From an uncultured Acidobacteriota bacterium (GTDB lineage: Bacteria; Acidobacteriota; Thermoanaerobaculia; Multivoradales; DATKCC01), in NCBI GenBank assembly GCA_963739795.1, contig CAVUBL010000004.1, positions 79,328 through 143,327 on the forward strand: a stretch of DNA of 64,000 nucleotides. The letters run 5' to 3'. Position 1 is the stretch's first letter; each line of letters begins with the position of its first letter. Under the pieces are notes generated by a model that saw nothing but the letters and a program-made list of their open reading frames with translations, was not told the DNA's origin and did no database searches. Both the position numbers and the translations under genes were made by a program. Below, in pieces: positions 1-19,080 of this stretch.

Positions 1-69
1 GTCCTGGGAGCCATCGAAGTCCTGGGCCGGCCCCGGAAGTTCGAGCTGCCGAAGTCGGTCGTGGTGTGA
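1..69 (+). CDS. cas2: Probable 3' end of CRISPR-associated endoribonuclease Cas2 (partial, runs off the window start)
   Basis: Frame 1 reads VLGAIEVLGRPRKFELPKSVVV*, resembling Cas2 C-termini (IExLG...VVV). It lies directly upstream of a CRISPR leader. Only 22 aa are visible. Confidence 0.6.
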   Translation, partial: VLGAIEVLGRPRKFELPKSVVV

Positions 70-290
70 GAGTCGGTATCATGAGGAGCATGACCAGGGT
101 GCGCACACGCCGCTGCGAGAGGTCCGGTGCCGCCGTTCCCGCCGGGGAGCGCTCGCGCCGGCTCTCCCCCGTAGCGAAGGGATCTTTGACAACGGAAGGA
201 CCGATGGCGGCCGGTTGGCAAGCCCGAACCACAGCACCGCTCGCAACCGCGCCCGGAAGCGCCCGCCTGGCGGGCCTCCGGGCGCGGAGT
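70..290 (+). promoter_or_regulatory. CRISPR leader
   Basis: 221-nt non-coding stretch between the cas2-like stop and the first exact repeat, containing GCGAG/CGCTCGC motifs and TCTTTGACAAC. The degenerate repeat is at the opposite end of the array. Confidence 0.75.
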
Positions 291-3094
291 GTTTCCACGT
301 CCACCAAGACGTGGCCCCATTGAAGCCGGTCGAGCGCCGATGCAGCGATCCGAGCTGCCAGCGAGCGTTTCCACGTCCACCAAGACGTGGCCCCATTGAA
401 GCGCGCCGCAGCCGGCTCGCGCCGGCTCCGGCGCCGCAGTTTCCACGTCCACCAAGACGTGGCCCCATTGAAGCGCGAGCTGCGCGGCTCGAGCGTCGAC
501 GCGACTCGCGTCGGTTTCCACGTCCACCAAGACGTGGCCCCATTGAAGCGCGGCGCCGAGCTCGCTCGCGCCGATCCGGCGACGCGGTTTCCACGTCCAC
601 CAAGACGTGGCCCCATTGAAGCGTCGACCGCGGATCGGCCGAGCTCGCAGCGTCGACGCCGTTTCCACGTCCACCAAGACGTGGCCCCATTGAAGCGTGG
701 CCGGCCGAGCTGACCGAGCACGCGCTCGCCGAGCGTTTCCACGTCCACCAAGACGTGGCCCCATTGAAGCGCGACTGCGAGCTCGCACGACGCCGCTCGA
801 CGCTCGCGTTTCCACGTCCACCAAGACGTGGCCCCATTGAAGCGCCGGTCGACGCTCGCACGTCGAGCGCTCGTGCGCCCGCGTTTCCACGTCCACCAAG
901 ACGTGGCCCCATTGAAGCCGGACCGCGACCGTGGCGACGCGCTCGAGCGCCGGTCGTTTCCACGTCCACCAAGACGTGGCCCCATTGAAGCCGAGCCGGC
1001 GTGGCAACGCGCTCGAGCTGCGACCTGCGGTTTCCACGTCCACCAAGACGTGGCCCCATTGAAGCGATTACCTGCAGCTCCTCGCGCGACCCCACCCGGG
1101 GTTTCCACGTCCACCAAGACGTGGCCCCATTGAAGCGAAGCGTCCGTCCCGCGGGTCGGTCACGATCAGTACGTTTCCACGTCCACCAAGACGTGGCCCC
1201 ATTGAAGCGTCTCGACGACGTGCGGGCAGGGCTCAGTAGCCATAGTCGTTTCCACGTCCACCAAGACGTGGCCCCATTGAAGCCGAGCTTGACGTGCTTT
1301 GGCCGCGTCTCCGCTCGTCGTTTCCACGTCCACCAAGACGTGGCCCCATTGAAGCCTAGTGTCTCCGCCGCTCCCGATCGTCAGTGCCCCGGTTTCCACG
1401 TCCACCAAGACGTGGCCCCATTGAAGCTGGACCTCGGCGGGCAGCTTCTCCAGCAAGTCGAAGTTTCCACGTCCACCAAGACGTGGCCCCATTGAAGCCG
1501 GGTCAGCGATCTTCCCCTGCCCGACAAGCTCGTCGTTTCCACGTCCACCAAGACGTGGCCCCATTGAAGCTCGAACCTCTCGGAGGTGACGCGGCACCGC
1601 AAAGAGCGTTTCCACGTCCACCAAGACGTGGCCCCATTGAAGCACGCAGGCGGACCTCGACGCGGCGTTCCCAGAGTCGTTTCCACGTCCACCAAGACGT
1701 GGCCCCATTGAAGCCAGCGCCACCTCTTGAGGCTCGCGCAAGCTCCCATCTCGTTTCCACGTCCACCAAGACGTGGCCCCATTGAAGCGCCGAGGGACTG
1801 CGAAAGGCGAGGGCGAACACGATCGTTTCCACGTCCACCAAGACGTGGCCCCATTGAAGCTCGTGCTCGACGAAGTACCTGGCGGCGTTCACCGGGGGTT
1901 TCCACGTCCACCAAGACGTGGCCCCATTGAAGCACCTGCACGCGCGACGCGGACCACGATCCACCGCATGTTTCCACGTCCACCAAGACGTGGCCCCATT
2001 GAAGCGGAGTCGGCGGAGCATCATCGGGGGCGGGTCGAGGCCGTTTCCACGTCCACCAAGACGTGGCCCCATTGAAGCGGGGAAGCTCAGCCGGAGCAGA
2101 AGTCGAAGATTGCGTTTCCACGTCCACCAAGACGTGGCCCCATTGAAGCGACGCCTTGCTCGAGGCGGCGGAGCGGTCCGGCGATGTTTCCACGTCCACC
2201 AAGACGTGGCCCCATTGAAGCCACCCGGGTAAAGACCCGCATCCCCAGCCGGACCGCCGTTTCCACGTCCACCAAGACGTGGCCCCATTGAAGCGTCCCC
2301 TCGGGGGTCGAGGGGCCGACTCGGGTTCCGGTTTCCACGTCCACCAAGACGTGGCCCCATTGAAGCAGATCATGAGCCCCGCGGCCTCGCCCCTCCTGTC
2401 GGTGTTTCCACGTCCACCAAGACGTGGCCCCATTGAAGCCGCCGTAGCGGGGCCTCGGCACTCACCATCGACGACGTTTCCACGTCCACCAAGACGTGGC
2501 CCCATTGAAGCTGCGAAGACTGCGCAGAGGCATGGCTCGCCGTGCTCGTTTCCACGTCCACCAAGACGTGGCCCCATTGAAGCTGGACGGTCTGCTTCTC
2601 CCACCCGCTGTACCAGCAGGTTTCCACGTCCACCAAGACGTGGCCCCATTGAAGCGTGGCCATGCGGGTCGCCTGGTCCTTGATGGCGTCCCGTTTCCAC
2701 GTCCACCAAGACGTGGCCCCATTGAAGCCGTAGACTGGAGCGTGTGGTCAAGGTGGGATAGTGCGTTTCCACGTCCACCAAGACGTGGCCCCATTGAAGC
2801 CTGGTGCCGGCGGAGCCGCCGGCGCGCAGATCGCCCGAGCGAGTTTCCACGTCCACCAAGACGTGGCCCCATTGAAGCAATGCCGCGTAGTCCAGGTGCA
2901 GGGGCTTCGATCCACGTTTCCACGTCCACCAAGACGTGGCCCCATTGAAGCATGGGCCGCCGCGCCTCGGTCTTCCGTCCGTCCAGGAGTTTCCACGTCC
3001 ACCAAGACGTGGCCCCATTGAAGCATTGACAACAACGCGGGTGCGGAGCTGCCGGGCGAGTTCCCACGTCCCCCAGACGTGGCCCCATTGCTGC
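291..3094 (+). CRISPR. CRISPR array, 36-nt repeat GTTTCCACGTCCACCAAGACGTGGCCCCATTGAAGC, 38 exact repeats plus 1 degenerate terminal repeat, 38 spacers of 35-42 nt; type I-G (I-U)-like repeat
   Basis: Exact repeats start at 291, 367, 439 ... 2916 and 2989. The degenerate copy GTTCCCACGTCCCCCAGACGTGGCCCCATTGCTGC is at 3060-3094. The repeat has a 7-bp stem CCACGTC/GACGTGG and ends in ATTGAAGC. The subtype is inferred from the repeat only. Confidence 0.98.
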
Positions 3095-3277
3095 GGGGAA
3101 CTCCGCGCTGGCGAGCCGTGGCACGGCTCGCTCGCTCCTCCCCGTCACGCCGGGCTCGGTGCCTCGTCACTCGCGGGCGGTCTCCCGCCCCTGTCTCGTT
3201 CTGTGAAACCTCTGCACATTAGTAAGTGTCCTAAGACTAAGACGTCTGATCACACCAAACCGCAGAGGAGAGACAGC

Positions 3278-5221
3278 ATGAGACGCAACCCTTCCACCCA
3301 CCGCCTTCTGATCGCCGCCCTGACGATCGGCGCCGCGGCCCTTCTGGTCGCCTTGCCCGCGAGCGCGACTTCGTCGGAGGGCTCCGTGCCCTCCAACCTC
3401 GAGACCCAGGCCCTGTCCATCGCGGCGGGGCAGGCGGGGGTCCCGGAGTCGGAGCTGACGATCGCGGCCGACTCGCCGGTGGTCTTCCCCGAGCAGGGGA
3501 TCACGGTCTACGACTTCAAGATCGTGGACGAGGCCGGCTCGGCGATGTACCAGGTGACCCTCGACGACTCCGGCGTCCAGCAGGACCTGGAGTCGCTGGC
3601 GACGGCGGAGGGCGACCTCTCCCGGGCGCGTTACGGCGCCCTGGACAAGGACTTCTTCGCCCGCCTCCAGGCGGCGCCGCCGGACCAGGTCTTCCCGGTC
3701 GACGTGTGGGTGGGCGAGCCCTTCCTCGATCCCGCGGTCCAGCGGCCGGACCCCGAGACGAACCCGTCCGAGGCCGAGGTCGACAACGCCGCGGCCAACA
3801 ACGACGCCGCCCAGCTCAGTACCGTGCAGAATGCCGTAGCGCCGGTCGTGAGTCAGCTCAAGGCGGACGGTTACACGGCCGTGAGCGACGACTCGGCGCC
3901 GATCGTGTCCACCCAGGTTCCCGCCCAGTACCTGCTCACCAACCTGTCCCGGTGGGCCGAGGTCCTGCAGATCGAGGACGACAGCCAGACCCTCGAGCCG
4001 AACCTGGAGATCCAGCTCCCGGCCTGCCAGACGAACGTCGTCCACAACCAGGGCATCACCGGGTCCGGCGTCCCCGTCGCCGAGGTCGAAGTCGGCGGGC
4101 GCATCAACACGAGCAATCCGTACCTGGCCGGCGTGACCCAAACGTACGGCTATAGCTGTGTCTCCTCCCATTCGGCGGCCGTCGCCGGCATCATCCGCAG
4201 CACCAACACGGCGCGGCTCGGCCACGCCTACAACAGCAACCTGTGGATCGGCGGCACCTGCGGCGGCGTCGTGAGCCAGGTCCTGACCGAGTCCACCAAT
4301 GCCCGCAACTGGGGGGCGCGCACCTTCAACCTCAGCTTCGGCGGCAACTTCGGTGGCGTGCCTTCGACCCTCGACCGCTACTACGACTCCCTGGTGCAGA
4401 CCTACTGGCGAACGGTGGTTCCGGCGGCCGGCAACGCGGGGATCTACGGCTTCGTGGACAGCCCGGGAACGGCCTACAACGTGGTGACGGTGGGCAGCTA
4501 CGACGACCAGAACACCACCTACTGGCCCGACGACGTCATGGCGAGCTACTCGAGCACCGTCAACCCGCTTTCCAACCACGGCGACCGGATCAAGCCGGAG
4601 GTGGCGGCGCCGGGCTCGAACATCAACAGCACCACCAACGCCTCGCCGTGGACCGGCGCGGTGGGCAGCGGCACGAGCTACGCGGCTCCGGCGGTGACCG
4701 GCATCACGGCCCTCCTCATGCAGCGCAACTACTCCCTCCGGGTGTGGCCGGAGGCGGTCAAGGCGATCCTCATGGCGAGCGCCGAGCACAACATCGAGGG
4801 GGCCACGCGGCTCAGCAACCGGGACGGCGCCGGCGGCGTGGTGGCGGACCGGGCGGACCGGGTCGCGCGCAAGGTGGCGAACGTCGGGAGCTGGCAGGGT
4901 CTCTACTACACCTGCTCCAACCCGTCCCTCCAGACTCTCACCACCGTCAACCTGGTGGCGGGCCAGCGGATCCGCTTCGCCATGATCTGGGACACGAACC
5001 CCAACTACTCCCTCTACACCTCGCGTCCGGGCGCCGACCTGGACCTCTGGGCGAGGACTCCGGGCGGCGGCTACGCGGCGTTCTCGACGAGTTGGGACAA
5101 CACCTACGAGATCGTGGACTTCACGGCCTCGGCGTCGGGGACGTACACCTTCCAGGCGTACAAGTACCGCTGTAACAGCAGCCCCTACTGGCTCGGCTGG
5201 GCCTGGCACATCGTGCCGTAG
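3278..5221 (+). CDS. Secreted S8 (subtilisin-like) serine peptidase
   Basis: GAGGAG RBS before ATG 3278; signal peptide; motifs SSHSAAVAGII, AAGN, KPEVAAPG, GSGTSYAAPAVTG; C-terminal beta-sandwich (DLDLW). Confidence 0.9.
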   Translation: MRRNPSTHRLLIAALTIGAAALLVALPASATSSEGSVPSNLETQALSIAAGQAGVPESELTIAADSPVVFPEQGITVYDFKIVDEAGSAMYQVTLDDSGVQQDLESLATAEGDLSRARYGALDKDFFARLQAAPPDQVFPVDVWVGEPFLDPAVQRPDPETNPSEAEVDNAAANNDAAQLSTVQNAVAPVVSQLKADGYTAVSDDSAPIVSTQVPAQYLLTNLSRWAEVLQIEDDSQTLEPNLEIQLPACQTNVVHNQGITGSGVPVAEVEVGGRINTSNPYLAGVTQTYGYSCVSSHSAAVAGIIRSTNTARLGHAYNSNLWIGGTCGGVVSQVLTESTNARNWGARTFNLSFGGNFGGVPSTLDRYYDSLVQTYWRTVVPAAGNAGIYGFVDSPGTAYNVVTVGSYDDQNTTYWPDDVMASYSSTVNPLSNHGDRIKPEVAAPGSNINSTTNASPWTGAVGSGTSYAAPAVTGITALLMQRNYSLRVWPEAVKAILMASAEHNIEGATRLSNRDGAGGVVADRADRVARKVANVGSWQGLYYTCSNPSLQTLTTVNLVAGQRIRFAMIWDTNPNYSLYTSRPGADLDLWARTPGGGYAAFSTSWDNTYEIVDFTASASGTYTFQAYKYRCNSSPYWLGWAWHIVP

Positions 5222-5243
5222 CGGTAGGACCGATCCCCGTCCT

Positions 5244-5284
5244 CTCCGCGCCGGCCCCGATCCCGATCCGGGGCCGGCGCGGAG
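5244..5284. terminator. GC-rich hairpin between convergent genes
   Basis: CTCCGCGCCGGCCCC ... GGGGCCGGCGCGGAG forms a 15-bp stem just after the peptidase stop. There is no U-tract. Confidence 0.5.
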
Positions 5285-5524
5285 GTCCTCGGGTTCAGGC
5301 GCGACCGGTTGGAGCCGGGCTGCTATGACCCCGCGCATGGATGTGTTTCGAAGGTGACTGTGCCGCAGACTGAGGCCTTGTCCTTGACCGCCTCGCTGGA
5401 GGCACCGGCCCTCCACGAGGTGGTCTTCGACGGCCCGAACGTCTTCGAGGGCTTTGCGCTGAGCTTGCGGGGGACGCCCGTCGAGGCCATCGAGGTGCGT
5501 GCCGGCGACCGGCGCGCTGCCCGC

Positions 5525-6205
5525 TCAGCTCACGCCGGGGGCTTGCTGGCGCTGGGTGGGGTGGCGGACGTCGCGGCCTTCGACGTAGTAGATGACGTCT
5601 TCGGCGATGTTCGTGGCGTGGTCGGCGATGCGCTCGAGGTTGCGGGCGATGAGCAGCAGGTGGAGGGCCCGGGTGACCGTCTGGGGATCCTCGATCATGA
5701 ACGTCAGCAGCTCGCGGAAGAGCTGGCGGTAGAGGGAGTCGACCTCGTCGTCGGCCTGGGTGACAGCGGTCGCCTGCGCCGAGTCGCGGCGCACGAAGGC
5801 GTCCAGGCTCTCGCGCACCATGCGCACCACCAGCTCCGACATCCGCGGCAGGTCGATGTAGGGCTTGAGGGGTGGCTCCTGGTTGAGCCGCTCGATCGAC
5901 TGGCAGATGTTGACCGCCGAATCCCCGATCCGCTCGAGGTCGGTGACGATCTTCATGACCGCGATCAAGAAACGCAGGTCGCCGGCCGCCGGCTGGTGAC
6001 GGACCATGATGCTGTAGCAGGCCTCGTCGATCTCCAGCTCGAGGCGGTCGATCTCCGTGTCCTCGTCGACCACCTCGCTGCACAGCGTCTGGGCCCGCGT
6101 GGTCAGGGCGTCGTTCGCCTTGCCGATCATCTCTTCGACCCGGCCGCCCATGGCCAGCAAGCGCTGGCGGACCCGGTCGAGCTCGTGTTCGAAATGCCGT
6201 TCCAT
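5525..6205 (-). CDS. phoU: Phosphate signalling/transport regulator PhoU
   Basis: MERHFEHEL...; QPAAGDLR, DLERIGD, RNLERIADHATNIAEDVIY motifs. Confidence 0.95.
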   Translation of the reverse strand: MERHFEHELDRVRQRLLAMGGRVEEMIGKANDALTTRAQTLCSEVVDEDTEIDRLELEIDEACYSIMVRHQPAAGDLRFLIAVMKIVTDLERIGDSAVNICQSIERLNQEPPLKPYIDLPRMSELVVRMVRESLDAFVRRDSAQATAVTQADDEVDSLYRQLFRELLTFMIEDPQTVTRALHLLLIARNLERIADHATNIAEDVIYYVEGRDVRHPTQRQQAPGVS

Positions 6206-6240
6206 GCGCTCTCCCAAGGGTGAGACTATCACCGCCCCGA

Positions 6241-6296
6241 AGGGTAGAAATCGCCGATGACGCGCCGGCGGCGCGGCCGTGACAGCGGTGCGACAA
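6241..6296 (-). promoter_or_regulatory. Pho-box-like promoter of phoU
   Basis: Minus strand TTGTCGC-N4-CTGTCAC (6296-6279) and GCGTCAT (6263-6257) are in 11-bp register. TACCCT (-10-like) follows 10 bp later. Confidence 0.55.
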
Positions 6297-6383
6297 CCGC
6301 TCACGCCGCCGTGGTAATGTAGCGCCGCTTCCCCCCTGGAGCGATTTTGGCGCGCCGACGCCCGACCCGCGTTCGACCCCGTC

Positions 6384-7679
6384 ATGGCGACTCCGTCCTC
6401 GGCTCCGTCCTTCCCACACTCGCGCGGGCTCGTCCGCGCCCTGGGCGCTGTCCTCTTCCTCGCCGCCCTGCTGTACGCGTTCTTCCTGGGCCTCGATCTC
6501 ATGGGCGTGGCCTTCAAGCTGTTCGGGAAGGACTTCGCGCGCATGCTCATCGAGCGCACGGCGAACCCGTTCGTCGGCCTGCTCGTGGGGATCGTGGCCA
6601 CCAGCGTCATCCAGAGCTCCTCGACCACCACCTCCATGACCGTCGGCCTGGTGGCCGCCGGGGCCCTGACCATCGACGGCGCCATCCCCATCATCATGGG
6701 CGCCAACATCGGCACCTCGGTCACCAACACCCTGGTCTCGCTGGCCCACGTGACCCGGCGCGAGGAGTTCCGGAGGGCCTTCGCCGGGGCCACGATCCAC
6801 GACTTCTTCAACCTGATGACGGTGGCGATCCTGTTCCCCCTGGAGCTCGCCTTTCACGTCCTGCGCCACGCGGCGAACGGCTTCGAGGCGGTGCTCGAGG
6901 GCAGCGGCGGCATCGAGCTCTTCGACCCCTTGAAGGCGATCGTGCGACCCTGCTCTCTGTGGATCAGCCACGCCCTCGGCTCGAGCGGCGGCCTGACCCT
7001 GGTGGTGGGCGTCGGCCTCCTGTTCGGGGCCCTCAAGCTCCTGGTCGACCTGCTCAGGTCCCTGGTTTCGGCCCGCGCCGAGCGCATCCTCGACCGCACG
7101 CTCTTCCGCTCCGCCCTGGCCGCCATCGGGGCGGGCACCCTGATCACCGTCATGGTGCAGTCGAGCTCCATCACCACCTCGGTCATGGTGCCCCTGGTGG
7201 GTGCCGGCGTGGTGACCCTCGAACAGCTCTTCCCCTTCACCATCGGGGCCAACCTGGGCACCACGGTGACCGCCCTGCTCGCGGCTCTCTCCACCGGAGC
7301 CCCGGCGGCCCTGAGCGTCGCCCTCTCCCATCTGCTGTTCAACCTGATGGGAGCCCTCATCATCTACCCCTTCCCGCCCATCCGGGCGATTCCGCTGGCG
7401 CTCGCGAGGGGGCTGGGCGCGGTCGCCAGCCGCAACCGGGCGGCGGCGATCGGGTACATCGCCCTGGTCTTCTACGGCCTGCCCATCGCCCTCCTCTTCG
7501 TCTCCGGGGCCTTCCACGGCGAAGCGCCCGCCGCGCCGGCGCCAGCGCCGGTCGAGGCCCCGGCGCCGCGGGCCGCACCGCGGCCTCCGTCCGCGCCCCG
7601 GACCGAGCTGCGGCGGCGCCCGTGGGAAGAGCCCCCGCCCGGCGGGCGGTTAGACGAACTGGAGGTTCACGATGCTTAG
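6384..7679 (+). CDS. Na+/phosphate cotransporter (NptA/NaPi-II family)
   Basis: Two repeats of the signature: QSSSTTTS/GANIGTSVT and QSSSITTS/GANLGTTVT; multiple TM helices. Confidence 0.93.
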   Translation: MATPSSAPSFPHSRGLVRALGAVLFLAALLYAFFLGLDLMGVAFKLFGKDFARMLIERTANPFVGLLVGIVATSVIQSSSTTTSMTVGLVAAGALTIDGAIPIIMGANIGTSVTNTLVSLAHVTRREEFRRAFAGATIHDFFNLMTVAILFPLELAFHVLRHAANGFEAVLEGSGGIELFDPLKAIVRPCSLWISHALGSSGGLTLVVGVGLLFGALKLLVDLLRSLVSARAERILDRTLFRSALAAIGAGTLITVMVQSSSITTSVMVPLVGAGVVTLEQLFPFTIGANLGTTVTALLAALSTGAPAALSVALSHLLFNLMGALIIYPFPPIRAIPLALARGLGAVASRNRAAAIGYIALVFYGLPIALLFVSGAFHGEAPAAPAPAPVEAPAPRAAPRPPSAPRTELRRRPWEEPPPGGRLDELEVHDA

Positions 7680-8325
7680 GGAGATCTTCGGTGGCGGCCA
7701 GCGCTCGCCCCTGATCGAGGCGGCGTTCGAGGATATTTCGGCGATGCTCCGGCAGTCGGCCAAGATGCTCGACCTGGCCCTCTCGGCCCTGCTCGACAAT
7801 CAGCCCCTCGACGCCGACCTCGACGAGCTCGACGACCCGGTCGACGAAGGCGAGCGGATGGTGCGCCGCAGCGTGCTCGAGCATCTCTCCTTCAACCCGA
7901 AGCAGGACCTGGTGGCGAGCCTGGTGCTGGTCTCCATGGTGCAGGACGCCGAGCGCATCGGGGATTTCGCCCGCGGTATCGGGGAGCTGGTGCCGCTGGC
8001 CAAGAGCCGCCGCGAGGGGCCGTTCGCCGATCGTCTCCGGGCTTGCGCCGAGAGGCTCCGGCCCCTGTTCGGGACCGCCGAGAGGGCGTTCCGGGAGGAC
8101 GATCCAGAGCTCGCGCGCACCGTCATGACCCGGACGGCCGAGCTCAAGCGCGAGCTCCAGAGGTTCACCGCCGACGTCACCGACAGCGACCTGACGGCCG
8201 ACATGGCGGTGGTCTACGCCAACGCCGCCCGCATCCTGCGGCGCATCGGCTCCCACCTCTCGAACATCGCCTCGTCGGTGGCGCAGCCGTATGACCGCAT
8301 CCGCCACGGCGACGAAGACGCCTGA
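7672..8325 (+). CDS. PhoU-domain protein associated with the Na/Pi transporter
   Basis: Helical protein with QDAERIGD and RRIGSHLSNIA PhoU-like motifs; overlaps the upstream stop. Confidence 0.8.
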   Translation: MLREIFGGGQRSPLIEAAFEDISAMLRQSAKMLDLALSALLDNQPLDADLDELDDPVDEGERMVRRSVLEHLSFNPKQDLVASLVLVSMVQDAERIGDFARGIGELVPLAKSRREGPFADRLRACAERLRPLFGTAERAFREDDPELARTVMTRTAELKRELQRFTADVTDSDLTADMAVVYANAARILRRIGSHLSNIASSVAQPYDRIRHGDEDA

Positions 8326-8464
8326 ACCGTGAGCCACCGAATCTCCGGCCGTCCTTGCTCGTCAGTTGCTCAACGGACGCACCCAGTCCGCCTCGCTCGT
8401 TCCTCGCTTGCGGGTGGCCCGATCTTCGGCACCTCACGGCCCAGGTGCCTCCGAGCTTCGGTCG

Positions 8465-10666
8465 ATGGCGGCTGACAGCTCGCACGGCTCCGAGCTCGCC
8501 GTCCTCTACCACGGCGAGCCCCAGCCGTTCTCCCGCGGGCTCCTCGCCCGGAGCATGCACGCCGCCGGGGTCGACCTCGACCGGGCCTATGCCCTGGTCT
8601 CGCGCCTCCAGGAGGAGCTCCTGGCCGCGGGCGGCGGCGTGGTCGACAGCGACGAGCTCGCTCGCCGCGTCGGCGACCTGCTCGAGCGCTCCGAGGGGTC
8701 CGAGGCGGCCTCCCGCTACCGCATGGTGCGGGGCATCCGGCGCCTGCCCCGGCCCCTGGTGATCTATCTCGGGGGTGCGACCGGCACCGGCAAGTCCACC
8801 CTCGCCCTCGACCTCGCCCCACTGCTACGCATCTACCGGATCAACGCCACCGACACCATCCGCCAGGTGATGCGCATGGTCTTCGCGCCGGCGATCCTGC
8901 CGGCGCTCCACCACTCGAGCTTCGAGCTGCCGCGCGAGGAGCGGGCGCGCAGGCTCCGTCCCGACGGCCGTCCGCCGGCGGGCGAGAGCTTCGACGAGCG
9001 GTTGCTCCGGGAGTTCGAGGAGCAGGCCACGCGGGTATGCGTGGGGGTTCGGGCGGTGGTGGAGCGGGCGGTGATGGAGAACCTGAGCGTCCTGGTGGAG
9101 GGTGTGCACCTGGTGGCGCCCCTGGTGCCGTTTCCCGACCTCGAGGGCTCCGCCTACCAGGTGTCGCTCCTCCTGACCACCCGGGACGAGGAGCTCCACC
9201 GCGCCCGCTTCGCCGCCCGCGGGCGGCGCGAGGGCAGGCCCGGAGAGCGGTACCTGGACCACTTCCACGCCATCCGGGCCCTCCAGGACCACCTGATCTC
9301 CCAGGCCGAGGCTCACGGGATTCCCCTCCTCGAGACCACCGACCGCGACACCACCCTGAGCCGGGCGATGCACCGGGTGACGGCGCTCCTCGAGGAGCAG
9401 ATCCCCCGCCTTCGGGCGGGCCCGCCGGAGGCCCGTCCCGGTCCCGTGCCCACTCTGCTGCTCTTCGTCGACGGCCTCGGCGACCGGCCGGTGCGCTCGC
9501 TCTCCGGGCGCACGCCCCTCGAGGCGGCCGCGCTGCCCACCTTCGACCGCCTCGCCCGGGAGGGCCGGACGGGCCTCGCCGATCCCATCGAGCCCGGCGC
9601 GGTGCCGGACACCGCGGCCGGCAGCCTGGCCCTCTTCGGGCAGTCGCCGCGGGCTCTGCGGCGGGGGCCGGTGGAGGCCCTGGGCGCGGGGATCGAGCTC
9701 GGGCCCGGCGACGTGGCGCTGCGGGGCAACCTCGCGACCCTGGACGAGGAGGGACGGATCGTCGACCGGCGGGCGGGCAGGATCCGGGAGGGGGCCGAAG
9801 AGCTCGCGGCGGCCCTCGACCGGCCGCCCCTGCCCGAGGAGTGGGCCGGCTTCACGATCCGTGTCCGCATGGGCACCGAGCACCGCCTGGCCGTGGTCCT
9901 CCAGGGCGACGGCCTGTCGCCGGCCGTGGCCGGGAGCGACCCCGGTGACGGCGCACCGCCCGGCCCGCCCCTGGTGCCCCGGGCCATCGACCCGGCCGAG
10001 GCCGCGGCGGTGCGCACCGCCCGGCTCCTCGCCCTGTTCGAGGAGCACGTCCGCCGCGTGCTGGCCCGACATCCGGTCAACCGGCGCCGAGTCGAGCTCG
10101 GGCTGCCGCCGGCCAACGCCGTGCTGACCCGGGGCGCCGGCCGGGTGCACCGGCTGCAGCGCCTCGAGCTCGCCGGCATGCCCCTGCGCATCGCCTGCAT
10201 CTCGGGGGACCGCACAGTGCTCGGCCTGGCGGCATGGCTCGGCGCGGAGACGGTGACCGGGCCCGAGATGACCGGCAACCTCGACACCGACCTGGACGCC
10301 AAGATCGGCGCGGCCTCCGAGGCCCTGCGGCGCAACGACCTGGTCCTGCTCCACCTCAAGGGGGCGGACATCGCGGCGCACGATTGCCGTCCGGACCTCA
10401 AGATGGAGTTTCTCGAGGCCGTGGACCGGCGGCTCGACGAGCTCCTGAAGGCCTGGCCGGGCCGGCCCCTGCGGGTGGCGGTGGCCTCCGACCACGCGAC
10501 CCTCTCGGAGTCCGGCCACCACTCGGCCGATCCGGTGCCGGTCCTGGTCTGGGGCGAGGGGATCGAGCCCGACGGGGTGGACAGCTTCACCGAGCGGGCG
10601 GTCGCCGAGGGCGCCCTCGGCCGCCTCCCGCTTCAGACCCTCCTCAACCGCCTGTTCGATCTGTGA
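8465..10666 (+). CDS. Fusion of 2-phosphoglycerate kinase (ATP-cone + P-loop) and ApgM-type cofactor-independent phosphoglycerate mutase
   Basis: N-half: PFSRGLLARS, GGATGTGKST, TDTIRQVMR, VEGVHL. C-half: DGLGDRP, TPLEAA, DRRAGRI, KGADIAAHD, SDHAT, HSADPVP. Single continuous ORF; the start is approximate. Confidence 0.85.
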   Translation: MAADSSHGSELAVLYHGEPQPFSRGLLARSMHAAGVDLDRAYALVSRLQEELLAAGGGVVDSDELARRVGDLLERSEGSEAASRYRMVRGIRRLPRPLVIYLGGATGTGKSTLALDLAPLLRIYRINATDTIRQVMRMVFAPAILPALHHSSFELPREERARRLRPDGRPPAGESFDERLLREFEEQATRVCVGVRAVVERAVMENLSVLVEGVHLVAPLVPFPDLEGSAYQVSLLLTTRDEELHRARFAARGRREGRPGERYLDHFHAIRALQDHLISQAEAHGIPLLETTDRDTTLSRAMHRVTALLEEQIPRLRAGPPEARPGPVPTLLLFVDGLGDRPVRSLSGRTPLEAAALPTFDRLAREGRTGLADPIEPGAVPDTAAGSLALFGQSPRALRRGPVEALGAGIELGPGDVALRGNLATLDEEGRIVDRRAGRIREGAEELAAALDRPPLPEEWAGFTIRVRMGTEHRLAVVLQGDGLSPAVAGSDPGDGAPPGPPLVPRAIDPAEAAAVRTARLLALFEEHVRRVLARHPVNRRRVELGLPPANAVLTRGAGRVHRLQRLELAGMPLRIACISGDRTVLGLAAWLGAETVTGPEMTGNLDTDLDAKIGAASEALRRNDLVLLHLKGADIAAHDCRPDLKMEFLEAVDRRLDELLKAWPGRPLRVAVASDHATLSESGHHSADPVPVLVWGEGIEPDGVDSFTERAVAEGALGRLPLQTLLNRLFDL

Positions 10667-12008
10667 GCGCGGCCCCGGGCCGCCCGGCAACCGGGATCAC
10701 CACCCGGATCGTGGTGCCCAGGCCGAGCTCGCTCGTCACCTCCACCTTGCCGCCGGCGCTCTGGGCGACGTGCTTGACGATTGCCAGGCCCAGGCCGGTG
10801 CCGCCCTCGGCCCGGGCGCGCCCCTTGTCCACGCGGTAGAAGCGCTCGAAGACCCGGGGCAGGGCGTCCTTGGGAATGCCGATGCCGGTGTCGGCGACCT
10901 CGATCGCCACGCACTCGCCGGCGTCGGTCGCTCGCCGCGAGATCCGCGCCGTCACCTTCCCGCCCTCGCGGTTGTACTTGATGGCGTTGTCCAGGAGGTT
11001 CTGGAGCAGGCGCTCGATGCCCTCCCGGTCCCCCAGGATCGGCGCCACGGGGCCGCCGGGCGTCTCCAGGACCACGTCGACCTTGCGGCTCCGGGCGCGC
11101 TCGGAGAGCAGCTCGATCGCCCGGCGCGCCACCGCCACCAGGTCGACCGGCGAGGGCTCGTGGCGTGGCTCCAGGCTTTCCAGGCGCGAGAGGGTGAGCA
11201 AGTCGTCCAGGAGGTCCTGGAGGCGGTAGCTCTGCTCGAGGACCCGCTCGACGAAGCGCTGGGCCGTGCCCCGGTCGTCGAGGGCGCCGTCGCGCAGCGT
11301 CTCGCCGTACGCCCGGATCGCCGAGAGCGGGGTCTTCAGCTCGTGGGAGACGTTGGCCACGAAGTCCCGGCGCATCTCGTCGAGGCGGGTCGCCTGTGTC
11401 GTGTCGCGGGCCACCACCACGGCGCCCTCGATCCGCGGACCTCCGGCGGCCGCCGGGCTCGTCCCGGGCGCCGGGCGCGCGGCCAGGACGGTGCTCGAGA
11501 GGGCGACGGTGCGGCGCTCGGGCGTCCGCAGGTCGGCGACCGCGCTCTGGCCCTCGCCGTGGGCCAGCGTGCCCTCGACCACTGCGGCGAGCTCGGGGAC
11601 GCGGGTGAGCTCCAGGGGCGCGCGTCCGGCGGCGTCGCCGGCGATGCCGAACAGGCGCCGGAACTCCGGGTTGATCAGGAGCGCCCGCCCCTTGCGGTCG
11701 GTCACCAGCACGCCGTCCGACATGCTGCGCACGATCGCCTCCAGATGGTCGCGCTCGGAGCGCACCTTGGCGATCTGCTCCTCGACCCGCCCGGCCAGGC
11801 GATTGAGGGTGGCGCCGAGGGCCGCCAGGTGGGGCTCCTCCGGCAGCGGCAGGCGGTGGGAGTAGTCGCCGGCCGCCAGCACACCGGCCCCTTCGGCGAG
11901 GCGGGTCAGGGGGCGGAACAGGCGGAGCGAGAGCCAGAGTGCGGCGGCTCCGGCGACGACCGCGAGGGCGGCGAGCACGACCAGGAGCCAGGCGCCGGTT
12001 TCGGCCAT
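10644..12008 (-). CDS. phoR: Phosphate regulon sensor histidine kinase (HAMP-PAS-HisKA-HATPase)
   Basis: RRDFVANVSHELKTPL, NLLDNAIKY, DTGIGI, FERFYRVD, GGTGLGLAIVKH. Confidence 0.88.
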   Translation of the reverse strand: MAETGAWLLVVLAALAVVAGAAALWLSLRLFRPLTRLAEGAGVLAAGDYSHRLPLPEEPHLAALGATLNRLAGRVEEQIAKVRSERDHLEAIVRSMSDGVLVTDRKGRALLINPEFRRLFGIAGDAAGRAPLELTRVPELAAVVEGTLAHGEGQSAVADLRTPERRTVALSSTVLAARPAPGTSPAAAGGPRIEGAVVVARDTTQATRLDEMRRDFVANVSHELKTPLSAIRAYGETLRDGALDDRGTAQRFVERVLEQSYRLQDLLDDLLTLSRLESLEPRHEPSPVDLVAVARRAIELLSERARSRKVDVVLETPGGPVAPILGDREGIERLLQNLLDNAIKYNREGGKVTARISRRATDAGECVAIEVADTGIGIPKDALPRVFERFYRVDKGRARAEGGTGLGLAIVKHVAQSAGGKVEVTSELGLGTTIRVVIPVAGRPGAALTDRTGG

Positions 12009-12021
12009 GGCAGGGATCGCC

Positions 12022-12705
12022 TCAGGCGCGCAGCCGGTAGCCGACTCCGATCACCGTCTCGATCCGCTCCGCCTCGTCGCCCAGCTTGCGGCGCAGGCGG
12101 CGGATGTGGGTGTCGACCGTGCGGCTGTCGATGTCCTCGGCGTAGCCCCAGACGTCAGAGAGGAGCTGGCCCCGGGTCTGGACCCGGCCCACCCGCTCCA
12201 TGAGGAGCTGGAGCAGGCGGAACTCGGTGGCGGTCAGGGTGACCTCCTGGCCGTCGACCTCCAGTCGGTGGGCGCCCCGGTCGAGGCGGAGAGGCCCGAC
12301 CTCGACCAGGTCGCCGACGGGTGCGGCGCCCCGCGCGCGGCGCAGCACCGCCTTGACCCGCAGCACGACCTCCCGCGGGCTGAAGGGCTTGGTGATGTAG
12401 TCGTCGGCGCCCAGCTCCAGGCCGACGATCCGGTCCACCTCCTCGCCGCGGGCGGTGAGCATGATCACCGGCAGCTCGGCGGTGACCGGATCGCGCTGCA
12501 GGATGCGGGCGACCTCGAGGCCGTCGAGACCCGGGAGCATGAGATCGAGGACCAACAGGTCCGGTCGCTCGGACCGGATGCGATCGAGGGCGGTGTCGCC
12601 CCGCTCTTCGGTCTCCACGTCGAAGCCCTCTTTGCCCAAGTTGTAGGCGAGGACCTCGGCGATGTCGGGCTCGTCTTCGACGAGCAGGATGCGACCCTGA
12701 GCCAT
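12022..12705 (-). CDS. phoB: OmpR/PhoB-family response regulator
   Basis: ILLVEDE, DLMLPG, GADDYITKPFS, RTVDTHIRRLRRKL; adjacent to phoR and phoU. Confidence 0.85.
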   Translation of the reverse strand: MAQGRILLVEDEPDIAEVLAYNLGKEGFDVETEERGDTALDRIRSERPDLLVLDLMLPGLDGLEVARILQRDPVTAELPVIMLTARGEEVDRIVGLELGADDYITKPFSPREVVLRVKAVLRRARGAAPVGDLVEVGPLRLDRGAHRLEVDGQEVTLTATEFRLLQLLMERVGRVQTRGQLLSDVWGYAEDIDSRTVDTHIRRLRRKLGDEAERIETVIGVGYRLRA

Positions 12706-12748
12706 GGAGGGGAGCTTAGCAGCCCGGTGCGCCGGGGCGACACGGGCC

Positions 12749-12941
12749 CCGTCCACAGAATCTGTGGAAAAGTCTGTGGAAAGCGGGTGGATGGGACGGC
12801 CAGAGTCCCTAGAATCCAGGGCTTGCTGCACATTGAACAGACTCTTGTGCATCTCGGCTAACCCTTTTAATTGCAGCGAGTTGAATGTGTCCATGGATCG
12901 CCCCCCTCGGATCGGCCTCCGGCGAGCCCACTTTTTCCACA
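12749..12941. promoter_or_regulatory. Cluster of DnaA-box-like 9-mers
   Basis: TGTGGAAAA at 12763-12771 and TTTTCCACA at 12933-12941 match TTWTNCACA. Near-matches are TGTGGAAAG (12775-12783) and CCGTCCACA (12749-12757), with a relatively AT-rich stretch in between. Confidence 0.5.
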
Positions 12942-12952
12942 GTTGGGCCGAA

Positions 12953-12992
12953 GTAACAAGGCGGTAACAGCCCCATGGCAGGCTCGTAACGT
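12953..12992 (-). promoter_or_regulatory. Four Pho-box-like direct repeats upstream of phoB-phoR
   Basis: Minus strand ACGTTAC-N4-CTGCCAT-N4-CTGTTAC-N4-TTGTTAC with an exact 11-bp period, similar to CTGTCAY. Confidence 0.6.
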
Positions 12993-13131
12993 ACTGAAAA
13001 ACGCTTGTCTTTCCGCGAGTTATCGAGACTCGCCGATCGATCTCGAGAAGGGGCGGGCCGGCCGGTGGAGAGGTCCGGGGCCGGGGTCGAAGAGGGCCTC
13101 CCAGGAGCCGACGCGCCCAGGCCGTGACGAC

Positions 13132-13314
13132 CTAGCCTGGACTATTCATGAGGCGCCGTAGCGAGAGGCGCAAGTGTGTGTGAGATCAGGGCGCACGTAG
13201 CGATGAGAGACGCAGGCGTACTGGACAGTACGTTGAGGAGCGAAGAGCGAGTACGCCCTGAGATCGCGTGCAATTGCGGCTCGTAGTAGGTGGCTCATGA
13301 ATAGTCCAGGCTAG
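13132..13314. mobile_element. MITE-like element, family A (183 bp)
   Basis: Perfect 21-bp terminal inverted repeats CTAGCCTGGACTATTCATGAG / CTCATGAATAGTCCAGGCTAG; no ORF; internal GACGCAGGCG-N12-CGTTGAGGAG core. Confidence 0.75.
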
Positions 13315-13411
13315 GAGTCTGCGCGGCTCTCGATGCGGGTCCGGTCGTAGGGGACGGGCCGGAGCCGAAACCGCCGGCCCCGGCCCGCGAGGAGGCACCT
13401 GGAGGAGGCTG

Positions 13412-13966
13412 CTAGCTACCCATGCTCATGGGGCCGCCGCCCTTGCCGCGGTGACGGGGACCGAAGGCCTGGCGCACCTCCTTGAGGATCGCCCAGCGGT
13501 CGGCCTGGGTCGCGGTCAGCAGCGCCGTGAACGACGTGTCGAAGGCGTCGCGGGCGCTCTTGATCTGATCGCGGACTCCTTGGATCTGGATCACCAGGGC
13601 GCCGACGGCGGCGGCGTCCGGGTTGTCGCTGTCCAGGAGGTCGGCGAGCTGCTTGTGGAGGGTCCCTTCCTGCTCATGGAGGGGCTGGACCGCGGTCTTG
13701 AGGTCGTCGAGGAGGGCCTGGGTCTGGGTTACCTGGTCGCTGGTGAGGTCGAGGAACCGGCTGACGGGCCCGAGGGGGAAGTGGCCCGCTTCGGCGCCCG
13801 GAGGGCCTCCGGGCCCCTGGCCGGCCGCACCCGGGGGCGGGCCGGGCGGCTGCGCGGCCAGCGGCAGCGCGGGGAGGGCGAGGAACACGGCCACGGCCAG
13901 GGGAGCGACGAGGGTGAGAGCCCGCGAGCGGGCCCTGCCGGGGGCGGTGGGTCGAGAGCGGTTCAT
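13412..13966 (-). CDS. Periplasmic Spy/CpxP-like (LTXXQ / heavy-metal sensor) helical protein
   Basis: AAGGAGA RBS, signal peptide, LDLTSDQ and LLTATQ motifs. Confidence 0.75.
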   Translation of the reverse strand: MNRSRPTAPGRARSRALTLVAPLAVAVFLALPALPLAAQPPGPPPGAAGQGPGGPPGAEAGHFPLGPVSRFLDLTSDQVTQTQALLDDLKTAVQPLHEQEGTLHKQLADLLDSDNPDAAAVGALVIQIQGVRDQIKSARDAFDTSFTALLTATQADRWAILKEVRQAFGPRHRGKGGGPMSMGS

Positions 13967-14132
13967 TCGGTGGGTCTCCTTGTCGAAGTCTCGGTGGGGC
14001 CGACGGTGCGTCGTCCCTTCGCCGGGTGAAACCCACGGAGCTCCGGTTTCTTGCGGAGATTCTTGGGCGGTTCGGCCGGCTGGTAGACTGCGGCTCCGAA
14101 TCGAAGATCCCACAGACGATGGGGAGCCGCCT

Positions 14133-15965
14133 GTGCTCAGAGTCCTCTACGACGACGCACCCCCCTCTCCGCCCGGCGGGACTCCGCGATTCCCGGAGTC
14201 GCCGGTGACCTTCGCCGCCGGCTTCCACCCGGAGGAGCGGGAGGACTCGGAGGCCTTCCGCTGGATGGGTCTCGAGGGACGCCTCGCCTTCCCCGCGGCC
14301 CCGCCGGGCGCGGCCCTCGAAGCCGGGGTCTTCTCGCCGTATTACGACCTGTCCCAGACCCTCTCCGTGGAGGTGGGCGGCGAGCACCACGAGCTGGAGC
14401 TGGTCCACGGTTGGGGCCTGGTGTCGGTCCCGGTGCCGGCCGGTGCCACCGAGGCGCGGCTCCGGGCGTCGAAGCCGTTGCCGGAGGCCCACCACCCGGG
14501 CGATCCCCGGGAGCTCGCCGTGCGCCTGCGCGCTCCCCGCCTCCACGCCGACCGGGCGCGCCGCGCGAGCGTCGAGCGCCAGCACGCCAACGCCGTCCTC
14601 AACCTGCGCGAGATGCTCGAGGGCCGCGGCGAGCTCTCCTCGACCCCCACCAGCCTGGGCATCGACCTCCACGGCGTGTGCAACGTCAAGCCGCCGTGCG
14701 TCTACTGCGACTGGGACGTCAGCAAGGCGCAGGAGGGCGATGCCGTCGACGTGCCCTTCACTCGCGAGACGCTGGACGAGTGGGGGGAGTTCTTCGAGAA
14801 CGCCGCCGGCCTGGTGAACTGCTCCATTGGCGAACCCTTCATGATGAAGGACCTCGACCGGGTGCTCGACGCCTTCGGCGAGCGGGGCAAGAGGCTGGAG
14901 ATGGCCACGAACGGCCAGATCCTCACCGACCGCAACATCCAGAAGCTTCTAGGCCGGCGGATCCACCTCTACATCTCCCTGGACGCCGCGACCGCCGACA
15001 CCTACGCCCGCCTGCGCAACGACAAGTTCGACCGCATCCTGGCCAACCTCCGGCGCCTCATCGCCGCCAAAGGCGGGCGAGACGGCCTGCCCAAGCTCCA
15101 CATGGTGTTCATGCCCATGCGCGCCAACCTCCACGAGCTCGAGCCGTTCGTGCGCCTGTGCGCCGAGCTCGGCGTGGACCGCATGGTGCTGCGACCCCTC
15201 AACTACAACGAGGCGACGGGCCTCGACTGGGTGAGGAACGGCTACCACTTCCGGTACGCCGAGGAGCTGCTGCCCTGGGACGAGCTGGTACGGGTGAGCG
15301 GCCGGGCTGCGGAGCTCGCCCGGCGCTACGGCGTGGAGCTCTCCGACCAGATGGACTTCGGCGGTCTGGGGCTGGAGACCGGCTTCGCCGCCGAGTACGA
15401 GCGGGGCCGGCGGGAGGCGGTGGGAGCCGAGGACGGCGAGGTTGCCGAGGTCTCGGCGGCGCCGGCCGAGCCTCTCGATCCGCTCGACTCCGCCGCGACG
15501 CCCGACGAGCCGGGCGCACCCGCGACCGCCGGCCCGGCCTCCGAGGCGTCGGCGGAAGCTCCGCCCTCGCTGGGCGAGGAGCGCCTGCCGATCTGCCTGG
15601 AGCCCTGGAAGAGCCTGTACATCCTGCGGCGCGGGGTGCTGCCCTGCTGCCACGGCTCGGCACCCCTGGCCTCCATGGACGAGTACAGGGAGACCTGGAG
15701 CTCTCCCACCCTCCAGGGCATCCGCACCGAGCTCGCCGCCGGCCGCTTCCACGAGTACTGCCTGAGCTCGGAGTCCTGCCCGATCGTGCGCAAGTGGCGG
15801 AACGCCGGGCCGCGGGGTCGCTCGGACCGCACCTTCCTGGCCTTGAAGCGCCTGTGGCACGGGGTGGATCGGCTGGGGTTCGGAGTGCCCAAGCGCCTCG
15901 CCCGGCCCCTGCGCGGACGGCTCCTCGCCCTCGCCCGCCGGGCCGCCGAGCTGGTCGGCGATTGA
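14133..15965 (+). CDS. Radical SAM/SPASM-domain protein with N-terminal beta-sandwich
   Basis: CNVKPPCVYC cluster motif, IGEPF, TNGQIL, ISLDAA, C-terminal CLEPW...PCC. The GTG start after GGGGAG is inferred. Confidence 0.8.
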   Translation: MLRVLYDDAPPSPPGGTPRFPESPVTFAAGFHPEEREDSEAFRWMGLEGRLAFPAAPPGAALEAGVFSPYYDLSQTLSVEVGGEHHELELVHGWGLVSVPVPAGATEARLRASKPLPEAHHPGDPRELAVRLRAPRLHADRARRASVERQHANAVLNLREMLEGRGELSSTPTSLGIDLHGVCNVKPPCVYCDWDVSKAQEGDAVDVPFTRETLDEWGEFFENAAGLVNCSIGEPFMMKDLDRVLDAFGERGKRLEMATNGQILTDRNIQKLLGRRIHLYISLDAATADTYARLRNDKFDRILANLRRLIAAKGGRDGLPKLHMVFMPMRANLHELEPFVRLCAELGVDRMVLRPLNYNEATGLDWVRNGYHFRYAEELLPWDELVRVSGRAAELARRYGVELSDQMDFGGLGLETGFAAEYERGRREAVGAEDGEVAEVSAAPAEPLDPLDSAATPDEPGAPATAGPASEASAEAPPSLGEERLPICLEPWKSLYILRRGVLPCCHGSAPLASMDEYRETWSSPTLQGIRTELAAGRFHEYCLSSESCPIVRKWRNAGPRGRSDRTFLALKRLWHGVDRLGFGVPKRLARPLRGRLLALARRAAELVGD

Positions 15966-16026
15966 CCGGGCCCTGTGATAGCTTTTCCTCGGCCCACGGC
16001 CCATCGCCGCGGGCTCTTCCACGACC

Positions 16027-17163: not shown

Positions 17164-17286
17164 CGAGCCCCGGCCTCCGCCCACCCCGACGGTGGGGGCG
17201 GAGGCCTCCTGGGGCGATATGATCGGGATGGTCGCCGACGCCCCGGCAACTGGCAGCGGCCGAATCCCAACCGAGGAGGAGAGAGC

Positions 17287-17673
17287 ATGTATCCGAGCGA
17301 TTATCTCTACTCGCGCGATCACGAATGGGTCCGGGTCGAAGGCGAAACCTGCGTCCTCGGGATCACCGAGCACGCCCAGGAGGAGCTGGGCGAGATCGTG
17401 TTCGTCGAGCTGCCCGAGGTGGGCGACACGTTCAACGCCGCCGACGAGGTGGGCACGATCGAGTCGGTGAAGGCCGTGGCCGAGGTCTACACGCCGGTCT
17501 CGGGCGAGGTGGTCGAGGTCAACTCCGCCCTCACTGACGACCCGGAGCTGATCAACGACGACCCCCACGGAGAGGGCTGGCTGATCAAGCTGCAGATCGC
17601 CTCGAAGGCCCAGCTCGACGAGCTGATGAACGCCGAGAAGTACGAGGAGTACCTCGACAGTGGCGAAGAGTGA
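17287..17673 (+). CDS. gcvH: Glycine cleavage system H protein
   Basis: HEWV, lipoyl motif IESVKA, PELINDDP. Confidence 0.97.
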   Translation: MYPSDYLYSRDHEWVRVEGETCVLGITEHAQEELGEIVFVELPEVGDTFNAADEVGTIESVKAVAEVYTPVSGEVVEVNSALTDDPELINDDPHGEGWLIKLQIASKAQLDELMNAEKYEEYLDSGEE

Positions 17674-19051: not shown

Positions 19052-19080
19052 CAGAGGGAAGTGGACCGAGGAGGACCGCG

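Follow-up and report, generated by a model that had tools for sequence, protein, structure and literature searches.

What does a protein do that joins a 2-phosphoglycerate kinase-like half to a phosphoglycerate mutase-like half and is encoded behind a phosphate transporter? This question is raised by a locus at positions 6384 to 10666 of a 64,000-nucleotide stretch of DNA (the window; about 70% G+C by composition count) from contig CAVUBL010000004.1 of an uncultured Acidobacteriota bacterium (assembly GCA_963739795.1). The locus encodes a sodium/phosphate (Na/Pi) cotransporter, a PhoU-domain protein and a 733-residue protein, here termed the fusion, in which an ATP-cone and a P-loop kinase related to 2-phosphoglycerate kinase (2PGK) are followed by a metalloenzyme domain of the ApgM type. 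The fusion represents two known families in one protein, in a phosphate context that is new and well supported, and with a product that is predicted. With a probability of roughly 0.45, it acts as a bifunctional enzyme in a module for phosphate homeostasis in Acidobacteriota and catalyzes the ATP-driven conversion of 3-phosphoglycerate (3-PG) to 2-phosphoglycerate (2-PG) and of 2-PG to 2,3-bisphosphoglycerate (2,3-BPG). The substrates, product, regulation and physiological role of the fusion are predictions from sequence. The features of the operon are as follows.

6384..7679, plus strand: Na/Pi cotransporter, 431 amino acids (PF02690, E 8.5e-42; NF037997, 132 bits, cut-off 50)
7672..8325, plus strand: PhoU-domain protein, 217 amino acids (PF01895, E 3.8e-18; TIGR02135, 70.5 bits, below the cut-off of 130)
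8465..10666, plus strand: fusion protein, 733 amino acids, ATP-cone, 2PGK-like P-loop kinase and ApgM-type mutase (ATG start, domain matches)
8513..8743, plus strand: single ATP-cone-like domain, residues 17-93 of the fusion (PF03477, 21.2 bits; alignment)
8744..9403, plus strand: P-loop kinase domain, residues 94-313 (NF003259 and NF008994; AlphaFold2 model)
8771-8797, plus strand: Walker A motif GGATGTGKST, residues 103-111, inside the kinase domain
9452..10663, plus strand: ApgM-type metalloenzyme domain, residues 330-733 (TIGR00306, 323.3 bits, cut-off 320)
9611-9613, plus strand: Thr383, at the nucleophile position of the ApgM-type domain (motif alignment)

The open reading frame (ORF) calls and the domain matches agree on these three co-oriented genes, as they had been given in a preliminary description of the window. 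The PhoU-domain gene starts within the end of the transporter gene, with an overlap of 8 nt, and is separated from the ORF of the fusion by a gap of 139 nt. With the TTG at 8366 as an alternative, upstream start, the fusion would have 766 residues.

The fusion is a real and conserved protein, and not an artefact. At E <= 0.001 it is matched by 1246 database proteins, which among the 120 matches listed are mostly fusions. The closest of them are named as proteins of Thermoanaerobaculia or Acidobacteriota, and the names given to relatives are phosphoglycerate mutase, ATP-cone protein or hypothetical protein. Among the 121 genomes searched from the same class, 19 contain a full-length match, always with the halves in the same order and without an internal stop codon in the match of the window protein, and the ApgM half only is matched in 29 further genomes. 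When contigs representing one genome per species are searched, 180 stretches encode a relative; 80 of these were kept, all of them with full or contig-cut fusions and all from metagenome-assembled genomes (MAGs) of the Acidobacteriota type. The kinase is found in 45 of 301 genomes of the phylum, a tally that includes the unpublished genome G166, which enters into none of the other results: it lies in ORFs of 777-938 residues in 30 genomes and of 350-461 residues in 14, and is cut by the contig end in one. Eight of the 14 short forms were examined, leaving aside G166, G139, G191 and three genomes from genera already represented among those examined. An ApgM gene is adjacent or one gene away in four of these eight stand-alone kinase loci of other Acidobacteriota, directly downstream of the kinase gene in three and in the row Ppx-ApgM-CBS-kinase in one. 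Neither an ApgM gene nor a phosphate gene is nearby in two of the eight. The preliminary description had held that separate halves in relatives would speak against the proposed role. Such split pairs do exist, but they are adjacent, which argues for functional coupling of the halves and not against it. This result supports the possibility that the kinase and ApgM are a functional pair that was fused later. Two further observations concern the arrangement of these genes. One MAG carries two copies of the fusion on two contigs (L105 and L118), one directly after pstS-phoU-pstCAB and the other without phosphate neighbours. The split kinase-ApgM pair of three other Acidobacteriota (L148, L149, L151) is preceded by a gene for a STAS protein (anti-sigma antagonist), with an RsbW-like HATPase_c_2 gene in two of the three, an arrangement suggestive of regulation through a partner-switching stress module.

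The N-terminal half of the fusion has the arrangement looked for in a kinase of the 2PGK family, in which an ATP-cone at the N-terminus precedes a P-loop kinase that has a Walker A motif and the family-invariant residues. Residues 17-313 score 263.5 bits with NF008994 (cut-off 603) and 242.6 bits with NF003259 (cut-off 343), with E values of 1e-72 to 1e-79. The residues invariant in 52 family sequences and kept in the fusion include P21, S23, G104, G107, G109, D130, R133 and P146 and further H149, S151, Q187, R201, E205, G213, H215 and R252. One of the kinase alignments contains a Deinobacterium protein that scores above both 2PGK equivalog cut-offs. The PF03477 match of the ATP-cone is weak in the window protein (21.2 bits, cut-off 25.8) and above the cut-off in relatives (41.9 bits in L031). 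Most relatives (790-865 residues) have a second ATP-cone-like repeat upstream, which the window protein and the relatives closest to it (729-745 residues) lack. ATP-cones are allosteric nucleotide sensors. The AlphaFold2 model of residues 1-325 has a predicted local distance difference test score (pLDDT) of 91.2, and the solved folds nearest to it are those of adenylate and UMP-CMP kinases, gluconokinase and uridine kinase, with 11-22% identity. The predicted fold of the kinase half is that of a small-molecule P-loop kinase. A sequence search of the PDB gives no solved structure matching this half. The two characterised members of the 2PGK family phosphorylate the primary hydroxyl group of a carboxylic acid that is already phosphate-esterified, 2-PG and mevalonate-3-phosphate respectively.

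The C-terminal half of the fusion (residues 330-732) passes the cut-off of TIGR00306 marginally and also matches PF10143 and PF01676. It scores 350.6 bits with the equivalog model NF003104, below the cut-off of 489, and its top NCBIfam models are mutase models, not those of PhpG or of a proposed homoserine kinase. The solved archaeal ApgM structures 3IDD, 3KD8 and 2ZKT match this half at E 1.6e-67 to 5.1e-65. When fused, split-partner and housekeeping ApgMs are aligned and set against the PDB alignment, the nucleophile region reads PDTAAGS in the fusion, PGSGPGH in the housekeeping copies and CGSDTSH in the structure from T. acidophilum. It reads G-T-D-V-G-H in the ApgMs encoded beside a stand-alone kinase and P-D-T-A-A-G-(S/T/N) in the fused ApgMs. 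Thus, every kinase-associated ApgM, split or fused, has Thr at the position that we take to correspond to the phospho-serine nucleophile of Bacillus iPGM, and the His residue located four residues later is lost only in the fused forms. All 77 fusions compared retain the cap motif DRRAGR and the metal motif KGxDxAxHD, and 76 of them have D-T; the ligands of the binuclear metal site and the NxxR insertion are kept in the ApgM half. Because the cap and metal motifs are retained throughout, the fused ApgM-type domain looks catalytically competent, but it is not necessarily a plain mutase.

A separate housekeeping mutase, for which the preliminary description had advised a search, is present in the genome, which is 97.3% complete. 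It is a stand-alone ApgM encoded on contig C15, which matches NF003160 at 487.5 bits, above the equivalog cut-off of 468. Because this housekeeping ApgM exists, the fused mutase is judged to be a dedicated paralogue and not the housekeeping glycolytic mutase. GpmI and GpmA are ruled out as housekeeping mutases by profile searches of the genome, in which no match reaches the cut-off of GpmI and no TIGR01258 match for GpmA is obtained at E <= 0.001.

To determine the gene context of the fusion, ORFs were called in 81 loci (the 80 kept relatives and the window), neighbours within a radius of 7 kb were clustered, and the cluster representatives were named with Pfam. The ORF picker misses some genes (the transporter of the window itself was set by hand), so that the neighbour counts are lower bounds. 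A core phosphate gene (pst, Na/Pi-PhoU or PPK1/PPK2/CHAD) lies within 7 kb of the fusion in 38 of the 81 loci, and in 26 of the 44 loci that extend at least 5 kb to both sides. As a yardstick, the phosphate genes of this panel occur at four places in the genome, and an estimated 1-2% or so of random positions lie within 7 kb of one. The most frequent neighbour clusters are PPK1 (14 loci), a SixA-like His_Phos_1 protein (12), CHAD (11) and an ABC ATPase (11), followed by Na/Pi, PstC/A, a PhoB-like regulator and a PhoU-like protein (10 each), a PhoR-like histidine kinase (9), PstS (7), PhoU (7) and PPK2 (6). The independence of these contexts is measured by tree placements and not by raw counts, because kin share contexts. 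In a FastTree tree of 77 fusions, the minimum number of separate placements is at least six for pst, at least five for polyphosphate genes and at least five for Na/Pi. Stand-alone kinases of other classes are encoded in the rows Ppx-SixA-PPK1-kinase and NaPi-PhoU-Ppx-kinase. These results indicate that the linkage to phosphate genes is real and that the contexts have arisen several separate times. The linkage is broader than was first noted, since it extends to pst, Na/Pi-PhoU, phoBR, PPK1/PPK2/CHAD and Ppx.

The fusion lies inside polyphosphate gene clusters in 16 of the 81 loci, and the genome that contains the window encodes PPK1, beside a PstC/A-like match of 30% identity, and two PPK2 proteins. 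The earlier suggestion that the fusion provides an alternative to polyphosphate is not upheld by these results: because PPK1 and PPK2 are present in the genome and the fusion occurs in polyphosphate clusters, it is not a substitute for polyphosphate. Two other links to polyphosphate, namely 2,3-BPG as the phosphoryl donor for polyphosphate synthesis and an orphan 1,3-bisphosphoglycerate:polyphosphate phosphotransferase activity, were set aside on general thermodynamic grounds; a phosphoester cannot drive the formation of an anhydride.

Two recurrent arrangements among these loci may be recorded separately. Four loci (L057, L058, L065, L086; also L031) contain a conserved supercluster in the order CHAD, ParA-like ATPase, PPK2 and PPK1, divergent from SixA-like, fusion, CNNM/CBS (CorC-like) and a CxxCxxCC protein. 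PPK2 is present there in two copies, one of them unlabelled in L086, and the supercluster has the appearance of a locus for polyphosphate granules, possibly linked to magnesium. In a context without phosphate genes (L075, L076, L090, L093, L104, L109, L116), a gene for a 615-residue protein with TPR and double cyclic nucleotide (cNMP)-binding domains is divergent from a gene for a 220-residue protein with weak TPR matches, which directly precedes the fusion.

The genes and repeats that flank the operon are as follows; the Pho-box scans use the E. coli-type pattern CTGTCAY-N4-CTGTCAY.

5525..6205, minus strand: phoU, 226 amino acids, divergent from the Na/Pi operon (TIGR02135, 237.5 bits, cut-off 130.25)
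6279..6296, minus strand: Pho-box-like direct repeat TTGTCGC-N4-CTGTCAC, two mismatches, in the phoU/NaPi intergenic region
10644..12008, minus strand: PhoR/PnpS-like sensor histidine kinase (Pfam HAMP, PAS, HisKA and HATPase_c; PnpS/PhoR are the best NCBIfam models)
12022..12705, minus strand: PhoB-like response regulator, 227 amino acids (TIGR02154 PhoB is the best NCBIfam match, 269.5 bits, cut-off 296.2)
12953..12981, minus strand: three Pho-box-like heptamers with 11-bp spacing upstream of phoB, two overlapping matches with two and three mismatches

The gene of the sensor kinase is convergent with that of the fusion, and their 3' ends overlap by 23 nt. The sensor kinase scores 339.8 bits with PnpS (cut-off 400) and 274 bits with PhoR (cut-off 334). 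Of the flanking genes named at the outset, phoU is secure, its score being above the cut-off, but phoB and phoR are assigned by best match only, with scores below the equivalog cut-offs. Both matches to the Pho-box pattern with two mismatches in the window (6279-6296 and 12964-12981) fall in promoter regions, in accordance with the repeats initially described for the two promoters, and the repeat between phoU and the Na/Pi gene recurs in the equivalent region of four relatives (L054, L066, L098, L107). L050 has a similar match upstream of its phoB gene. Across 1.31 Mb of sequence from related loci, 18 matches with two mismatches or fewer are found: seven just upstream of the Na/Pi gene (five loci), two upstream of phoB, one between PPK1 and the SixA-like gene, one directly upstream of a fusion, and seven elsewhere. 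The operon adjoins phoU and phoBR and has a PhoB-type repeat in its promoter, as is looked for in a member of the Pho regulon. Control of the operon by PhoB is plausible from this arrangement. An Rfam search of positions 1-20000 of the window gives no match, and a simple promoter and terminator scan of positions 6100-10800 finds nothing. A different set of repeats is located at 12753-12783, 50-80 bp upstream of the phoB start (12705): CCACAGA and, after it, two copies of TCTGTGG with a spacing of 12 nt. This set may form an operator separate from the Pho-box-like repeats.

The simplest product of the fusion would be 2,3-BPG, because an enzyme that makes 2-PG is fused to a member of a 2-PG kinase family. 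The C-terminal ApgM-type domain, as a dedicated paralogue, most likely turns 3-PG into 2-PG, and the N-terminal P-loop kinase would convert 2-PG to 2,3-BPG with ATP under the control of the ATP-cone. Scarce 2-PG, made from the more abundant 3-PG, may be channelled within the fusion. The gene is probably co-transcribed with those of the Na/Pi transporter and the PhoU-like protein from a PhoB-controlled divergent promoter, and the product may act beside polyphosphate, either buffering phosphate in a soluble organic form or serving as a regulatory bisphosphate. The SixA-like histidine phosphatase, which is encoded directly upstream in many relatives, may hydrolyse this bisphosphate. Its gene is co-directional with that of the fusion in 12 loci, at a median distance of 95 nt, and a make-and-break pair is suggested because of this position. 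By analogy, such a pair would suit a bisphosphate that acts either in signalling or as a phosphate buffer with rapid exchange. A wider proposal is that this pair forms a hitherto unrecognised bisphosphate arm of phosphate homeostasis in Acidobacteria, in which the ATP-cone-gated kinase-mutase makes 2,3-BPG or a close relative, the SixA-like phosphatase removes it, and the compound acts as a signal or fast buffer that coordinates uptake by Pst or Na/Pi with the synthesis and breakdown of polyphosphate. This proposal is speculative and rather unlikely.

Several points weigh against the assignment of the fusion as a 2,3-BPG-forming enzyme of phosphate homeostasis. The kinase half lies below both 2PGK equivalog cut-offs of NCBIfam, and it is also matched by NF008996 (mevalonate-3-phosphate 5-kinase), a member of the family with another substrate. 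Thr in place of Ser at the nucleophile position and the missing His residue may mean that the C-terminal domain is not a plain mutase. The housekeeping mutase already yields 2-PG, and only the channelling argument accounts for a second mutase. The PhoR- and PhoB-like genes both score below their NCBIfam equivalog cut-offs, and the Pho-box pattern is not enriched across the window as a whole (7 matches, 9.7 expected). Finally, 43 of the 81 loci, including the whole nqr-linked genus, have no core phosphate gene within 7 kb, many of their contigs being short; 7 of these loci lie beside a cNMP-binding/TPR gene, 4 behind an nqr-apbE operon, 2 have a regulator or kinase only, and 30 are classed as other.

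The alternative that survives best keeps the role in phosphate homeostasis but assumes another chemistry, in which the Thr-type domain is a phosphotransferase or phosphatase, or the kinase acts on another phospho-hydroxy acid. It deserves serious attention, although we consider it unlikely. The Thr residue that separates kinase-associated ApgMs from the housekeeping and archaeal ones with Ser, the loss of His in the fused form, the mevalonate-3-phosphate 5-kinase in the same kinase family and the position of the kinase half below the 2PGK cut-offs are all in line with it, as is rice LPA1, for which inositol monophosphate is given as a proposed kinase substrate (PMC4844318). Against it, DRRAGR and all metal ligands of the solved ApgM mutases are kept in all 77 fusions, the mutase models are ahead of those of PhpG and the proposed homoserine kinase for the C-terminal half, and the simplest match remains a 2-PG kinase family combined with an enzyme that forms 2-PG.

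It is improbable that the fusion is a regulated glycolytic mutase, in which the ATP-cone and the kinase-like half merely sense nucleotides and tune the mutase. The known function of ATP-cones as nucleotide sensors and the score of the C-terminal half above the ApgM subfamily cut-off would fit such an enzyme. However, the genome has a stand-alone ApgM above the equivalog cut-off, the full-length fusion is restricted to 19 of the 121 class genomes with a stand-alone ApgM-type match only in 29 more, all kinase residues of the catalytic type are conserved, and the neighbours are phosphate genes and not glycolysis genes.

The preliminary description had also suggested phosphate storage as (cyclic) 2,3-diphosphoglycerate (cDPG). 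It is very improbable that the fusion catalyzes the first step of a cDPG pathway like that of thermophilic methanogens, with cDPG as a thermo- or osmoprotectant and phosphate store. According to two reports, 2PGK makes the precursor of cDPG in Methanothermus (PMC10690619; bioRxiv 10.1101/2025.02.21.639460). The public metagenome runs in which the stretch is best represented, the top one of which may be its source, are labelled salt marsh and soil, and the salt marsh label makes a role as osmolyte conceivable. According to PMC10690619, however, cDPG is confined to hyperthermophilic methanogens. The solved cDPG synthetase described there has 460 residues, with the Lys and Thr of the P-loop at 149-150 (PMC10690619). 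A P-loop gene of about 460 codons does not recur near the fusion in the 81 loci. In an indirect screen of the genome (97% complete) for ORFs in which a Walker A motif is preceded by at least 110 residues and followed by 250-370, 35 ORFs were obtained, of which the 20 of 620 residues or fewer were examined and the 15 longer ones left out. Seventeen of these 20 belong to other known families, and the remaining three have no PDB match to cDPG synthetase at E <= 1. The cDPG proposal thus finds no synthetase-like gene either in the 81 fusion neighbourhoods or in the 20 of 35 ORFs covered by the indirect screen. The same screen met an alternate (N-type) F1F0 ATPase alpha subunit besides the standard atpA/atpD (C9:163393-165024, C1:61015-65258). 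The weakest alternative, that the fusion supplies 2,3-BPG as the priming cofactor that cofactor-dependent mutases such as GpmA need, has a negligible chance and is already contradicted for this genome by the lack of a TIGR01258 match reported above.

The fusion resembles several known systems in part. It shares with the archaeal 2PGK of Methanothermus fervidus (NF003259 / PRK04220) the order of ATP-cone and P-loop kinase, covers model positions 15-294 of 306 and has all family-invariant residues. It differs from this enzyme in its lower score (242.6 bits, against 343), in being joined to a mutase, in its occurrence in bacterial MAGs of mesophile type and in its phosphate and polyphosphate context, with the partner cDPG synthetase not found in the indirect screen. 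The best match of the kinase half is NF008994 / PRK12337, a Deinococcus-Thermus type of 492 positions with a common kinase core and tandem ATP-cone-like repeats, which, unlike the fusion, is longer by about 180 positions at the N-terminus and lacks a mutase domain; to our knowledge, the function of this type is likewise untested. The C-terminal half shares with ApgM (TIGR00306; 3IDD, 3KD8, 2ZKT) the full-length domain, the metal ligands, DRRAGR and the NxxR insertion, and differs in the Thr for the nucleophile Ser, in the missing His four residues later and in being a second copy beside a housekeeping ApgM. In 6-phosphofructo-2-kinase/fructose-2,6-bisphosphatase, a P-loop kinase and an enzyme of the histidine-phosphatase fold make and remove a regulatory bisphosphate. 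The analogy with the fusion is one of logic only, the SixA-like phosphatase being a separate gene located upstream in 12 of the 81 loci. Rice LPA1 (OsPGK1), likened here by description and not by sequence, likewise has a 2PGK-family kinase and is genetically tied to a phosphate store, being needed for phytic acid according to PMC4844318, but it is eukaryotic, lacks a mutase fusion and has inositol monophosphate as its proposed substrate.

No paper on the fusion, or on a bacterial 2PGK tied to phosphate genes, is found in full-text searches of the literature (supplements being outside their scope), in agreement with the initial impression that neither the fusion nor its context had been described. 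A small set of enzymes, PPK1, PPK2, PPX, Pst and PhoU, underlies the biology of polyphosphate and the Pho regulon, and the fusion adds to it a concrete new candidate from a large, mostly uncultured phylum of soil and sediment. If the proposed function is correct, it would give a testable function to the widespread and uncharacterised bacterial "2-phosphoglycerate kinase" family and would extend the use of 2,3-BPG beyond red cells and methanogens. The bisphosphate arm, if it exists, would be comparable to what the 2PGK homologue LPA1 does for phytate storage in plants. The fusion is a single soluble polypeptide, and its candidate substrates are commercially available.

The pho locus is flanked by a subtilase S8 ORF of 761 residues (2936-5221, plus strand) and a radical-SAM ORF of 780 residues (13623-15965, plus strand). 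An element of about 185 bp with terminal inverted repeats of 27 nt is located at 13131-13315, upstream of the phoB promoter region. It resembles a miniature inverted-repeat transposable element, and dozens of copies with 82-100% identity are detected by blastn on most contigs of the genome.

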